Below are positions 51,001 to 60,000 of a stretch of DNA of 64,000 bases, piece after piece (the first letter of the stretch is position 1; each line of letters starts with the position of its first letter). Source of the stretch: Escherichia phage PA27. The stretch lies in sequence record KP682380.1. One strand, written 5' to 3'. Position numbers: made by a program.

Positions 51001-54000
51001 TTCAAAAGGCCAGGGGGGAACAGGCCAGAGATGAAAGTGCTTCATCTGCATCTCAGTTTATCCGTGGACTGAAACAGAATTACGCCCAGTAATTCACGAT
51101 ATTCCATTAATACCATTTCCTGATGCCCGGCCATTGTGCCGGGTTTTTTTATGGAGTCTGTATGGCCTATTCAGAGGAACAGCGTCCTGAGGCGCAACTC
51201 GGTAACCAGAATCGTAACAGCCTGAACATTCAGCAACCCGGCGAAACTGACAGCTATGAAGCATTTTTCTCTGATCCGAATCGCTGGAAGGATAACAGTA
51301 CGTCGTTCAGCCTGGGCGATGTATTGCCAACAATGGGTAAAGGTTTCGCCCAGTCCGTCCGGGGAACAGGGGAAATGGCCCGTGGACTCGGTGATGCGAT
51401 GATTCAGAGCCCGGTAAAAACAGGGGCGCGTATTTTAAATGAGTTCAGCCGTATGGGGCTGCCGGGTGTCGCAACTGTGCAGGATATTTTTGCCGGTGGC
51501 AGCAGGGGGGCTGATGAGGTCATCGATACCCTGCCTGATGGCAAAAACGCGGTTACTGATACTGTCGGTAAAGGTCTGAAGGCAACCGGTAAGGCTGTCA
51601 GTGATGGTGCCAAAGCCACTGATGAATGGCTGACCGGTAAGATGTCGCCGGGTGCAGTTCGTGCGCTGAATACGCCGATGACCGAAGGCTATAATGATTC
51701 TGCGGTCTGGGTGGCGAAGGGTGTAAACCTGATTGGTGCGCTTGTACCTGATATGGTTGCTGGCGGTGTGGCTAGAAAGGTGGGTGATGTCACACTGCGA
51801 AAAATGCTGACCGCCGGGCTGGAGAAAAAATACATCGCGGCAGGGATGCAGCCGGAAAGAGCCACGGCACTGGCAGCAGAAGCTGTCGATAAAAAAATGC
51901 CGGATTTATTCCAGGCGGGCCTGATCACCCATTCCACTGTAAGTGCACAGGGGCAGAGTGCAATGGCGGCAGCAGATGCTGTTCTTAATGCTGATTACTC
52001 TGAGCTGGCGCAGTCACCGAAATTTCAGCAGACGTTTTTGTCCATTGACGCCGACCCGCAGCACGCACAGCTTACTGATCGCCAGAAAATGGATCTGGCA
52101 AAAGAGCGTGTTGCCGATGAGGTGCGCGCGCAGCTGGCAACCGATCCTGAATTGCTGGCTGTGAATGCCATGGCGGCAAAACTGGGTGACGCACAACTGT
52201 TTAATCTGGTGACACGAGGCACAGCGAAGACCGTTAAAAGCGGCATTGTCAGAAATGCCACGGAACAGGGGGCGATTAATGCGGCGCAGGGCGGCTATTC
52301 ACGCTATCAGGAAAACACGGCATTGCGTGAGACCGCCGGAATGGGTGTGTCACCGTGGGAGGGCGTGGCTGACGCAACGATCGAAGGTGCAGCCTTTGGT
52401 GCTGCGATGGGGGCTCCATTCGGTGCGGTTGCCGGATATCGTGGCAGACGTCAGGCCGCAGAAGAAACCGCCATGCGTGATGCTGAAACCGTGCAGCAGG
52501 ACGACGCAGCCCCGCAACCAGAATCTGTTGATCCGGTGGCGCAGCAGCGTGAATCCATGCAGGGCATGAATCGCGAGCAGCTTCTGGAGCAGTATGCTGA
52601 TGCGGATATGGCAACAGAGGGTGACGCATCCGCAGCTCATCGCCGGGAAGCTGCCAGCCAGTTGTTGAATGAACTGGACGAACAGACGAAGCGACAGGCT
52701 GTGATGAATGAGCTGAAGGCGAAGCCGCGTTCTGAACTGCTTGAGGAATACCGCAGACTCAGCCAGAAAGAGGGGCGCACCGAGACTGAAGAACAACAGT
52801 TTCAGGCAATACGAGAAGTCATTCGCCCACAACAGGAAGTGACGCCGGAAGCACAGTCACAGCCTGAAAATGCGGAGGATGGTAACGGGAGCATTTACCC
52901 GACGGTGCGGTTCCGGGACCCGAATGAAGTCCGCATTGAAATTAACGGGAATGGTGCGTCCAGACCAGCGGAACGCATTGAGAAGGTGCGCCCGGACAAC
53001 CGTTATTTCACGGATGAGAAAAGCGCCATGGGGAGTGATGTTTTCCGTAATGCCGCCGCCACCGGCCTGAAACCGTCCGTAGTGAAGAAAGGCGAGAATC
53101 AGTATGCCGTTGAAATGGATAATCCTGCGTTCTCTGAAGATGTGGCAACGGAAACCATTAACACCCTGGCTGACGGAGAGCGTATTGCTGATGCTGACCC
53201 GATGGAGCAGCCCGCGTTCATGCGTGACCCGCGATTCCGTGGTTTCACGGGGGATGATACGGAGGTACAGGCCCGCCTTGCCCGTGGCAACGCGCCGACG
53301 GCAGAGGAGCTTGTACGTTCACAGATGGCTGAAGGTGATGCCGGTCCGACAGCACAGGAGTTAACTGAGCGTCCACGCCTGCCCGCTCCCGGCGATATTC
53401 ATCCCGGACAGGGATATCCGTTACCGGGAGAAGTGGCGCGTACGCCGGATGAAAATCAGGCCGGACGTGGTGGTCGTTTTACCACAACCGGTGAGGTTAA
53501 GGGCCAGAGTTTCCAGAAAGGACAAGCTCCGGCACCGGAAAACGCCGCTGGTCGCCAGGGGGAAACACTCGAGGGTGACATGGTTCGTCGTGGTCTGCCG
53601 TCACCGGATGCGCAGAACGCGACAGCACCGGTACGTGAAGGGCTACCGGCTCCTGACATTGCGCGTAATGTTCGTATGCCTCAGCCTGAATCACTTCCCC
53701 GCACTGTACGGGACTCACTGCCTGAGCTTGCACAGCAGGCAGAAGTACGCCGACAGGCCGGAGGAAATCGTGACATCCCGCAGCCTGAGACAATCGCACC
53801 TGAATCTGAAACAACTGTCTCTACTGACAGGGAAGCTACCGTGCGCGGAGGTGAAGTCAGGGGCAAAAAAATTGAAGACTTTGGTGAAGAAATTAAGGGC
53901 GCGGCAAAACACCGTTATGCACAGCTTGCTGAAACACTGGGTAAAACGCTGGAAGACAGGGATTATGCCACGCAGCCGCTGAGCAAACTGTTCCCGAAAC

Positions 54001-57000: not shown

Positions 57001-60000
57001 AGCGCTACGTTCAGCCACTGGCTAAATTACTGGCGGACTACAAAATTGCGCAGGCCGATCTGGATGAGTACCTCTACGCCCGTCACGCGCCGGAACGTAA
57101 CGCGCATATCGCGAAAATCAACCCGAAAATGCCGGACGGCGGTTCGGGGATGACCAACGCGGAAGCGGCGGAAATCATGCAGCGTGTACGTAACAGTGGC
57201 AAACAGGCACAGTATGACCGTCTGGCAGGGATTATTGACGATATGCTGGCCCGTCGCCGTGAGCTTATCCGTGAGGCCGGACTTGAAGAGAACGGTGTGG
57301 TGGATGCCTGGCAGAACGCCTACCGTTACTACGTTCCCCTGAAAGGTCAGGATGTTGACGGTGTGGTGTCACTGCCCCGTACAGGTAAGGGCTTCACCAT
57401 CGGCGGACGTGAAAGCAGGCAGGCCATGGGGCGTGCATCCCGGGCACAGTCTCCGTCCACTCAGGCGATACAGGACCTGAGCGAATCGCTGATCCGCCAT
57501 CGCAAAAACGAAGTGGGTAACGCCTTCCTGAAACTGGTGCAGGATAATCCCGACAAGGATTACTGGCAGGTATTCACCGATGACAGACCGGATACCATGC
57601 GGACGATTGCAGAGCGCAAGGACCAGGAAACTGGTGAAACCATTCGCGAAGTTGTCGAACGCCCTGTACCGATGGCAATGATGGCAGACCGGTACTTCAC
57701 CACCAAAAAGAACGGCAAAACGTACTACATCAAACTCCATGATCCGCGCCTGATGCGTGCGATGAAGAGTATGGGACCGGAAACCAGCAATGCCTTTGTT
57801 CGTACGCTGGGGAAAGTTAACCGCTTCCTGGCAACGGTGAACACGTCGTATAACCCGGAATTCCTGGTCAGTAACTTCATCCGTGACGTGCAGACGGCGG
57901 TGATGAACCTGAAGGCGGAGCAGGGAAGGAGCGACGGTAAACTGAAAGGGCTGGATAACTTATCCGCCCTGGCTGTGGTGAAAGACAGCCGTTCTGCCAT
58001 GTCAGCCGTATACGCCAGTCTGCGTGGTAAAACCCTCACGGGAAAAGGTGCACAGTGGCAGAAGGTGTGGAAAGAGTTTGTTGAGGACGGAGGGAAAACC
58101 GGCTGGTTTAACATGGGTGACCTTGAAGGCCAGCAGAAGGAAATGGATCGCCTTGTCTCACTGGCGAAGGGGGGATGGAAAGGCCAGAGTATCGGTGCAT
58201 GGAATTCGTTCCTTAACCTTGTCGAGGATGCCAACGGTGCGGTTGAAAACGCTCTGCGTCTTTCTGCCTATAAGCACGCCCGTGATGCCGGTTTGTCACG
58301 CCAGCAGGCGGCGTCTCTTGCCAAAAACATGACGGTGAACTTTAACCGTCGTGGTGAGCAGGGGGCGCTGATGAATTCGCTGTACATGTTCGCCAACGCC
58401 AGCATTCAGGGAACGGCAAATCTGGTGAGAACGCTCGGACATCTTAATGGTGAGGGACCTTTACTGGAGCGCCTTCGCTGGAAGAATCTGAATGTTCCGC
58501 AGAAAATCGCGCTTGCCGCTGTGGGAGCAGGTTATCTGCTTGGCTCGCTTAACCGCAGCGTGGCGGGTGAGGATGATGACGGGGTTAACTGGTATGACAA
58601 GGTGCCGTCTCATGTGAAAGAGCGTAACCTCGTCATTATGAAATCGGTGTTCGGGGGCAAGGCCGGAGAGTACTGGAGTATTCCTCTGCCTTACGGGTAC
58701 AACGTTTTCTTCCTGCTCGGGCATACTGCTGAAGGTGTGGCGGCGGGTGACCTGACGGCGTCCCGTGCTGCCGGTAATGTTGTTGGTGGTGTGCTTGGTG
58801 CATTCAGCCCGATTGGCAGTGAGACGTCGGAAACACTGTCCGGGGCATTGCTGAAAAATGCAGCGCCGACCATTCTGCGTCCGTTTGCGAACCTTGCCAT
58901 GAATGAAAACTTCATGGGGGCGCAGATTTACCAGGAGAACATGCCGTTTGGTACACCAAAACCTGACAGCCAGCTGGGAAGACGTTCAACGCCAGAAGCG
59001 TACAAGGCGTTTGCATCCTGGCTGAATGCGTTCTCAGGTGGCAGCCAGTACCGTCCCGGCGCGGTGGATATCACACCGGAATCGCTGAAATTCTGGATTG
59101 ACTATATCTCCGGAGGGACAGGGCGCTTCATTTCCAAAACCACGGATGCGGCGGTGAAATCGCTGAATGGTATTGATATACCGGAACAGCAGGTGCCCTT
59201 CCTGGGGAAAATTTCGGGGGAGGTGATGCCGTATGCAGACCAGCAGAAGATGTACGACCGGATGACAGAGATTGCGCAGTATCACGCAGAGCTGAAGAGT
59301 CTGACCGGTGCAGAAAGAACGGCGTTCATTGACGAGAACAACGGAAAATTGTCGATGAACGGGCTTATGCAGGATACCCGGAAGAGACTGAAGGATTTGC
59401 GTAAACAGCGTGATGCCATTTACGCCGACAGTACTCTCAGTCTGGCGCAACAGTCGGCGATGGTGAAATCGGTAGAGCGGGATATGAAAATTGCCGTGGA
59501 TCGGTTTAACCGCGAGTACAACAAAAAAGTGGGAGTGGATTAACAGAAATGGCCCCGTACGGAAGTGCGGGGCTGATTAAGAAATAAACACTCATTGACC
59601 TGTAATAACCGGAGCTATTAACATATAGTCAGAAGAGCATTTCATGTGATACAGAGAGCCGATTTATGTTTAATGAAGAAAAAGTTGCGCAAATGGCAGC
59701 GTATTTGCTGAAAAAGCATGGCGGATCTATGCGTTTCATTAAGCTGAAGCAGCAACGGTAATGGCGAATAGCATTTATGAGCAAAATAATCTTGATATGT
59801 TATTAGGCGATCTGATGTAACCGGGATGATGTTCACCCCTTATCGCCGGGGAACAATACCGGCAATCAGAATTGCGGATGGAACTATTCAGGCCCACGAT
59901 GATATCGATGAGGAGTTTTTTCAGCCAGTATTGGATGGCTTTCTTATATCCAAATATACGCCATTTGACATCCTCCACGCCCTGAAGGACGGGGTTTTAC

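Follow-up and report, generated by a model that had tools for sequence, protein, structure and literature searches.

What protein is encoded by the very long reading frame that ends the late region of a short-tailed Shiga toxin (Stx) phage, and where does it act? The question is raised by Escherichia phage PA27 (record KP682380.1, classified as Sepvirinae, Traversvirus), of which a stretch of 64,000 nucleotides (nt), here called the window, was analysed; the window is a short-tailed Stx2-converting prophage. A preliminary description made from the sequence alone had noted an open reading frame (ORF) of about 2790 amino acids (aa) at 51162-59543, with two HExxH motifs, and had likened its product to ejected polyvalent virion proteins. 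The plus strand from 51123 to 59543 indeed forms one unbroken ORF, of 2806 codons when counted from its first ATG; translation from ATG 51162, which is preceded by GGAG, yields a product of 2793 aa, hereafter the giant. The 8.4-kb stretch showed 100% DNA identity to VT2-Sakai/Sp5, and 185 Stx-phage records matched it at at least 90% identity over at least 80% of its length. The phi24B protein vb_24B_48 (gp47) was 97% identical to the giant. The giant is the product of the known last late gene of short-tailed Stx phages, ORF80/ECs1242, an identification that has already been described and is not new. We consider it likely that this product is a large polyvalent internal virion protein of the 933W/Sp5-type short-tailed Stx phages.

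ORF80 was deleted in Sp5 by Mondal et al. in 2016; the prophage was excised, DNase-resistant DNA was packaged, and the heads looked normal (PMC5155283). The deletion gave no plaques and no lysogens, and the defect was restored by a plasmid copy (PMC5155283). The gene is real, conserved, late and essential for infectivity. Virion proteomics, which the preliminary description had named as a check, has been published for phi24B: mass spectrometry of purified virions detected gp47 as an abundant component (Bubenchikov, preprint 2026, 10.64898/2026.04.10.717836). The phi24B protein was not visible by cryo-electron microscopy (symmetric maps) or negative stain, and the preprint suggests an encapsidated ejection protein. 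Portal, two adaptor rings, nozzle, fibres and needle were assigned to other genes, and gp47 was not in the tail density (10.64898/2026.04.10.717836). These data also bear on the reading of Mondal et al., who named ORF80 a tail-formation gene; the protein would then serve to build the short tail, either as an assembly factor or as a structural part of the tail, perhaps as an energy-using AAA+ ATPase, and would not be ejected. They found that the DNA-filled heads of the deletion strain were not labelled by anti-tail-fibre antibody, and they reported a COG1483 AAA+ match (PMC5155283). However, no Walker A motif ([AG]xxxxGK[ST]) was found anywhere in the 2806 aa, and no ATPase family was matched in Pfam, NCBIfam or PHROGs; the AAA+ identity was rejected on these grounds. 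Moreover, the phi24B tail density is fully assigned to other proteins, and the labelling result, given as 'data not shown', is also compatible with tails whose attachment requires internal proteins to be docked at the portal. We regard a tail-building role as unlikely.

Residues of the giant are numbered here from ATG 51123 (the 2806-aa form); subtraction of 13 gives the number in the 2793-aa form. In this numbering ATG 51162 is Met14. It is probably the true start, because GGAG (51153-51156) lies 5 nt upstream of it, while ATG 51123 has no Shine-Dalgarno sequence and runs into a terminator-like hairpin; the first 13 codons after ATG 51123 overlap GCCCGGC-cattgt-GCCGGGT and its run of seven T (51125-51151). 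The coding sequence (CDS) begins at ATG 51123 in both RefSeq (VT2-Sakai) and the phi24B GenBank record. The signal or leader peptide of the phi24B GenBank record was rejected as a probable artefact, namely the translated terminator hairpin 5' of the likely start. A terminator-like site directly 5' of the largest late gene might reduce expression unless Q antitermination is active. The gene is the last of the late operon, following the terminase, portal, capsid and fibre genes; it closes the operon, as the preliminary description had proposed, because the genes 3' of 59543 lie mostly on the opposite strand.

Pfam searches of the giant gave matches to LPD38 (163 bits, aa 2489-2694), LPD5 (153 bits, aa 1064-1213), LPD1 (84 bits, aa 1374-1453) and MuF_C (64 bits, aa 1763-1852), all above the gathering scores (27-28 bits). 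Iyer, Burroughs, Anand, de Souza and Aravind in 2017 defined the large polyvalent proteins that occur in phages and in conjugative elements, along with their LPD, PBECR and metallopeptidase domains (PMC5512222); the four Pfam domains of the giant are hallmarks of the phage type. The giant has further features of this type: several unrelated globular domains, LPD families among them, in one very large polypeptide; a gene located among the late/virion genes; and a zincin-like domain with HExxH and a downstream Glu. The proposed likeness to ejected polyvalent virion proteins is supported by the four Pfam domains and by the presence of the 97%-identical phi24B protein in virions.

Domain search and structure prediction revealed several domains in a protein whose domain content had at first seemed unresolvable by eye, and placed both HExxH motifs, which are conserved in distant homologues, on confidently modelled helices. 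The whole protein contains two such motifs, HEWFH and HEIIH, where 0.04 would be expected from its composition. They occur at 55011-55025 and 55812-55826, exactly as first described, in separate zincin-like domains. Neither lies inside a Pfam match, and permissive Pfam scans (E≤10) of the segments between domains gave nothing useful; because single-sequence scans were uninformative there, homologue alignments and NCBIfam were used for both HExxH regions. Sequence searches of the PDB, with the giant alone and with two homologue profiles, returned low-complexity or designed-protein noise only. In an AlphaFold2 model of aa 900-1900, with a predicted local distance difference test score (pLDDT) of 78, both motifs were on helices with strands before them.

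The first motif is part of an invariant block, AHYE-x8-INLTK-xxGxG-[ST]L-[AG]HEWxHxxDNYF, in an alignment of 44 distant homologues. HEWFHSLD was present in all 44, with the Asp that follows HExxH in CLCA_X. A second conserved helix, YWSTxxEMAARAFE (E1388/E1395), lies inside "LPD1" and probably supplies the third metal ligand. The NCBIfam model CLCA_X (NF041907) matched aa 1195-1450 over 243 of 250 model positions (E=2.1e-43); the score of 148.6 bits did not reach the curated cut-off of 260 bits. Judged by sequence, the first zincin is a relative of CLCA_X and, by the NCBI cut-off rule, not a member. The end of LPD5, the unassigned gap and LPD1 look like one CLCA_X-type zincin region that was split by the Pfam models. 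CLCA_X zincins, in which HExxH is followed by a conserved Asp, are found mainly in phages and plasmids and often in very long proteins (Lenart et al. 2013, PMC3650047). The domain also fits the phage-type metallopeptidase clade of Iyer et al., in which HExxH is preceded by a conserved His and followed, at a distance of three residues, by an Asp (PMC5512222). A search with aa 1040-1900 returned 740 proteins, and the module at aa ~916-1463 recurs at 30-50% identity in hundreds of proteins whose downstream domains vary (ART, inositol phosphatase, RadC, other PBECR types).

Conservation of the second zincin and of the MuF_C domain was determined from domain matches in 52 and 16 giants, respectively; a broader alignment, in which many rows were non-homologous, was set aside. 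In the second zincin, H1564 was conserved in 46 of 52, E1565 and H1568 each in 50 of 52, and the downstream E1620 in all 52. Some near relatives have HExxxH in place of HEIIH, a variant also mentioned by Iyer et al. In the MuF_C domain, H1765 and S1829 were each present in 16 of 16 homologues, and the fold of the model matched the BECR toxins BrnT and CdiA. In PBECR domains the active site has a His close to the N-terminal helix, plus a Ser/Thr in strand 4 (PMC5512222, section 19). From their positions, H1765 and S1829 are the predicted active site of a PBECR RNase. The phi24B preprint labels MuF-C as a 'metallopeptidase'. This is a mislabel, because the Pfam match, the BrnT/CdiA-like fold and the conserved His and Ser are those of an RNase-like domain of the BECR type; it is the two HExxH domains, further upstream, that are the predicted peptidases.

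The two conserved zincin domains raise the question of whether the giant acts on the cell wall. Cell-wall hydrolases are frequent in podophage ejection proteins, an example being the transglycosylase of T7 gp16. The phi24B preprint proposes that a metallopeptidase digests peptidoglycan cross-links and opens a path for the conduit (10.64898/2026.04.10.717836). It credits this activity to the MuF-C domain, however, which has a BECR/RelE-like RNase fold and not that of a peptidase. The zincins of the giant resemble MtfA, lethal factor/PPEP, CLCA_X and minimal zincins, not M15/M23-type cell-wall peptidases, and no lysozyme or transglycosylase family was found by Pfam or in the inter-domain scans. 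Digestion of peptidoglycan by the giant is thus very unlikely in our judgement.

The two ends of the giant are shared with other phage proteins. The Gly-rich N-terminus and the hydrophobic Gly-rich C-terminal region of the preliminary description were both recovered, the C-terminal stretch being weakly hydrophobic. Glycine plus alanine (G+A) content was 0.28-0.31 at aa 100-500 and 0.28 at aa 2501-2600, and Gly-zipper-like, weakly hydrophobic segments were present at aa 194-221, 420-438 and 2458-2480. In an exhaustive HMMER search with aa 14-470, the N-terminal module was found as the N-terminus of ~60 proteins of 1.7-4.7 kaa (thousand amino acids). In PHROGs, the N4-type virion RNA polymerase family was matched weakly by aa 248-636. 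A profile of 61 N-terminal modules matched residues 103-595 of N4 gp50 with 19.4 bits in hmmsearch, with no shuffled decoy among the reported matches, and hhalign aligned aa 272-436 (nt 51936-52430) with gp50 296-442 at 96.5% probability (E=7.2e-10). These profile comparisons make a solid case that the core of the module is homologous to the N-terminal domain of gp50, for which an association with gp51 and the inner membrane has been suggested (Bellis et al. 2026, PMC13434306). The second zincin matched gp50 C1 weakly (hhalign 44% probability, E=2e-4). The linker at aa 461-915, which follows the N-terminal module, is kept in close relatives only and is probably disordered.

Homologues keep the C-terminal ~900 aa as one block, at 33-58% identity over 95% and with numerous invariant positions; this block forms the extreme C-terminus of many giant phage proteins in which the preceding domains differ. 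The model of this module was mostly helical, with pLDDT 82 and a predicted template modelling score (pTM) of 0.78. Among cultured phages, it was found in Stx, Vibrio, Ralstonia, Burkholderia (Bcep22 "DarB-like") and Bacillus phages. Among 61 giants with the N-terminal module, the second zincin occurs in 52, the LPD5-zincin-LPD1 core in 19 and MuF_C in 15, and 29 terminate precisely in the C-terminal module; the middles of the 61 differ (helicase, ART, PRTase, others). Because the end modules are shared while the middle domains differ, the family is one of a conserved chassis with exchangeable cargo, in line with the polyvalent-protein concept. The Salmonella orthologues (P0074 and P0263, 2931 aa) have an apparent extra insert of ~260 aa between LPD1 and the second zincin (aligned to aa 1437-1696); one Salmonella orthologue fragment was named phosphoribosyltransferase by its source, which would exemplify cargo swapping among close relatives. 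A stand-alone C-terminal LPD38 module of 981 aa (P0155) on a contig of an Amphritea metagenome-assembled genome (L002:10001-12946) was not used as evidence for an autonomous module; it sits between recombination genes and a repressor and is apparently part of a rearranged prophage remnant.

The same family suggests a further role, that of a packaged anti-defence carrier of the P1 DarB type, which, entering along with the DNA, would neutralise restriction or other immunity only and take no part in building a DNA conduit. PHROGs names part of the shared C-terminal module (aa 2364-2694 only) 'DarB-like antirestriction', the Bcep22-type relatives are annotated DarB-like, a Strawberry-notch/DarB-like helicase lies in the middle of one relative that shares both end modules (P0287), and counter-defence roles are predicted by the polyvalent-protein concept (PMC5512222). 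However, neither the SNF2/Strawberry-notch helicase nor the methyltransferase domain of the DarB type was found in the giant by Pfam or in the inter-domain scans. Loss of plaques and lysogens on K-12 MG1655 is stronger than we would expect for loss of an accessory anti-restriction factor, and the N-terminal module is related to a gp50 domain implicated in the ejectosome. An exclusively anti-defence function is quite unlikely on this evidence, and an internal virion protein remains our preferred reading.

A second line of evidence came from amino acid composition. No cysteine is present in the giant (2793 aa) or in the four ORFs directly 5' of it, a total of 3663 consecutive coded residues, whereas TerL, the portal protein and the 567-aa ORF70 product have 6-8 cysteines each. 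Cysteine was also absent from 57 of 61 related giants, and C-terminal-module homologues had 5 cysteines in 46,762 residues. N4 gp50, gp51 and gp52, T7 gp15 and gp16, and the N4-like C-terminal domains are cysteine-free; T7 gp14 has one. The lack of cysteine is not mentioned in a review of ejection proteins (PMC8954989) or by Iyer et al. (PMC5512222). We would attribute it to selection: proteins that thread the tail and an oxidising periplasm would have to avoid forming disulfides or trapping metal. It may mark ejected proteins in general, and it supports the view that 48450-59543 is one ejection cassette, which by sequential ECs numbering would include ORF76 and ORF79. Features of the region are listed in Table 1.

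Table 1. Features of the giant gene and the genes in front of it (nt positions in the window; residues in the 2806-aa numbering)
Feature	Position (nt)	Residues (aa)	Strand	Remarks
Four upstream ORFs	48450-51092		+	218, 148, 83 (Gly-zipper, 'bacteriocin') and 421 aa (ORF79, essential); cysteine-free; candidate partner ejection proteins
Terminator-like GC hairpin and T7 run	51125-51151		+	Situated between ORF79 and the giant gene; the CDS annotated in RefSeq (start 51123) includes it in its 5' end
Shine-Dalgarno GGAG (51153-51156) and likely true start ATG 51162	51153-51164		+	2793 aa, the published size of ECs1242
Giant CDS	51162-59543		+	2793 aa plus stop; Sp5 ORF80/ECs1242, VT2-Sap73, phi24B vb_24B_48/gp47
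N-terminal module	51162-52502	14-460	+	Gly/Ala-rich, Gly-zipper-like segments; PHROG phrog_2206
Polar linker	52503-53867	461-915	+	Pro/Glu/Gln/Arg-rich; ~450 aa; no family matches
Core module	53868-55511	916-1463	+	Helical pre-domain, LPD5 (1064-1213), CLCA_X-type zincin (1195-1450), LPD1 (1374-1453)
HEWFH, then D1304	55011-55025	1297-1301	+	First zincin motif
Second zincin-like domain	55590-56222	~1490-1700	+	In 52 of 61 related giants, usually directly before the C-terminal module
HEIIH (reads HEIIHH)	55812-55826	1564-1568	+	Second zincin motif
MuF_C/PBECR RNase-like domain	56409-56678	1763-1852	+	Helix plus four strands, in line with a BECR core of one N-terminal helix and 4-5 strands; Pfam MuF_C match
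C-terminal helical module	56820-59540	1900-2806	+	~900 aa, mostly helical; holds LPD38 (aa 2489-2694; nt 58587-59204)

The ORFs at 48450-51092 had been described as Gly/Ala-rich and of medium size, and their G+A contents were 0.29, 0.25, 0.36 and 0.19. In Sp5, deletion of ORF76 strongly reduced infectivity, and ORF79 was essential (PMC5155283). The 83-aa Gly-zipper ORF, annotated 'bacteriocin', lies at 49565-49816. Proteomics of phi24B found a 'homolog of a bacteriocin' at levels comparable to those of structural proteins of low abundance, and the finding was discounted as contamination (10.64898/2026.04.10.717836). The 83-aa ORF probably encodes this phi24B "bacteriocin homolog"; because it is placed inside the cysteine-free block, its product may be a true virion or ejection protein. 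Terminator-like hairpins are also present at 47549-47567 (after lom) and 48408-48427 (just before the 218-aa ORF), and they set the cysteine-free block apart from the preceding moron region. Further upstream, the ORF70 product (42816-44519, 567 aa, 8 cysteines), which is essential and assigned to 'tail formation', matches the PHROG phrog_511 'internal virion protein'; alternatively, it may correspond to the phi24B nozzle.

In the role that we propose for the giant, the T=9 head would hold a few copies. Once the receptor is bound, the protein would exit via the tail, before the DNA or together with it, as loosely joined, partly unfolded beads on a string, a mode of transit consistent with the long linker and with the total absence of cysteine. 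The N-terminal module, probably with the products of ORF76-79, would insert into or anchor at the envelope and help to extend the short tail into a trans-envelope conduit. In the cell, the zincins could cleave the giant itself or host proteins, and the RNase-like domain could act on RNA early in infection.

Several points weigh against this proposal. Ejection, membrane insertion, proteolysis and RNase activity of the giant are all predictions. With Kyte-Doolittle values of 1.1-1.4 over 19 aa, the segments mentioned above are weakly hydrophobic, so that transmembrane insertion is uncertain, and the lack of cysteine is correlative evidence only. The C-terminal module has no match to any solved fold, and profile comparison with N4-like C-terminal domains detected no relationship to the C2 domain of N4 gp50 (hhalign 0.1-0.3%). 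The small proteins encoded upstream have no detectable similarity to N4 gp51 or gp52. Finally, to Mondal et al. the phenotype of the deletion indicated defective tail assembly (PMC5155283), which a pure cargo protein would not predict. The tail-less phenotype suggests that an internal protein must dock at the portal for tails to attach or stay attached.

A more far-reaching proposal is offered only tentatively, as a possibility that we would not favour at present. The giant could be an RNA-polymerase-less member of one gp50-type 'beads-on-a-string' superfamily, with a shared N-terminal envelope anchor and swappable cargo between the end modules. A five-gene ejectosome cassette (48450-59543), the 83-aa 'bacteriocin' included, would be recognisable by its total lack of cysteine, and the zincins would cut the chain after translocation and so free an active RNase along with other modules.

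Short-tailed Stx phages carry Shiga toxin genes from one E. coli to another; the essential giant gene occupies ~14% of the genome. A packaged, probably ejected multi-enzyme protein explains the length of the late region. Its two predicted zinc-protease sites, one predicted RNase site and proposed N-terminal anchor are targets for asking how Stx phages cross the envelope and establish infection. The gene had already been deleted, its product detected in virions, and the protein class described; the additions made here are the CLCA_X-type zincin that bridges "LPD5" and "LPD1", the C-terminal module, the lack of cysteine and the absence of an AAA+ signature. The link of the N-terminal module to N4 gp50, together with the cysteine-free signature, could help annotators to spot ejection cassettes in other podophages.

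Among known systems, Sp5 ORF80, VT2-Sakai Sap73 and phi24B gp47 are the same gene as the one studied here, and only the annotated start differs (51123 in RefSeq, as against the likelier 51162). The 'DarB-like' giants Bcep22 gp75 and JC1 gp69 of Burkholderia and Ralstonia podophages occupy the same place at the end of the morphogenesis module. Bcep22-type giants share the C-terminal module (27% identity over 84%), and gp75 and gp69 are larger, at 4.5-4.6 kaa. In Bcep22-like Burkholderia podophages the giants are virion-associated by mass spectrometry, and the portal and capsid genes are 933W-like (PMC9144972). The phage-type large polyvalent proteins of Iyer et al. (PMC5512222) are, like the giant, multi-domain proteins encoded at the end of the virion gene block, with LPD5, LPD1, LPD38, PBECR (MuF_C) and zincins; that study did not link the N-terminal module to the N4 virion RNA polymerase's N-terminal domain. 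N4 gp50 (Schitoviridae) is encapsidated in a few copies, is unseen in reconstructions, consists of loosely linked beads-on-a-string domains, and leaves the virion after gp52 and gp51 (PMC13434306). Its C-terminal domain has an HExxH subdomain and a large helical subdomain without structural relatives (PMC13434306). Unlike gp50, the giant has no RNA polymerase domain: no such family was found in Pfam, NCBIfam or PHROGs, and no PDB sequence was matched. Homology, which is predicted from profiles, is solid for the N-terminal module only, and the layouts run parallel: both proteins are encapsidated, lack cysteine, have a long linker and an HExxH zincin before a large helical C-terminus, and are encoded next to small cysteine-free proteins.

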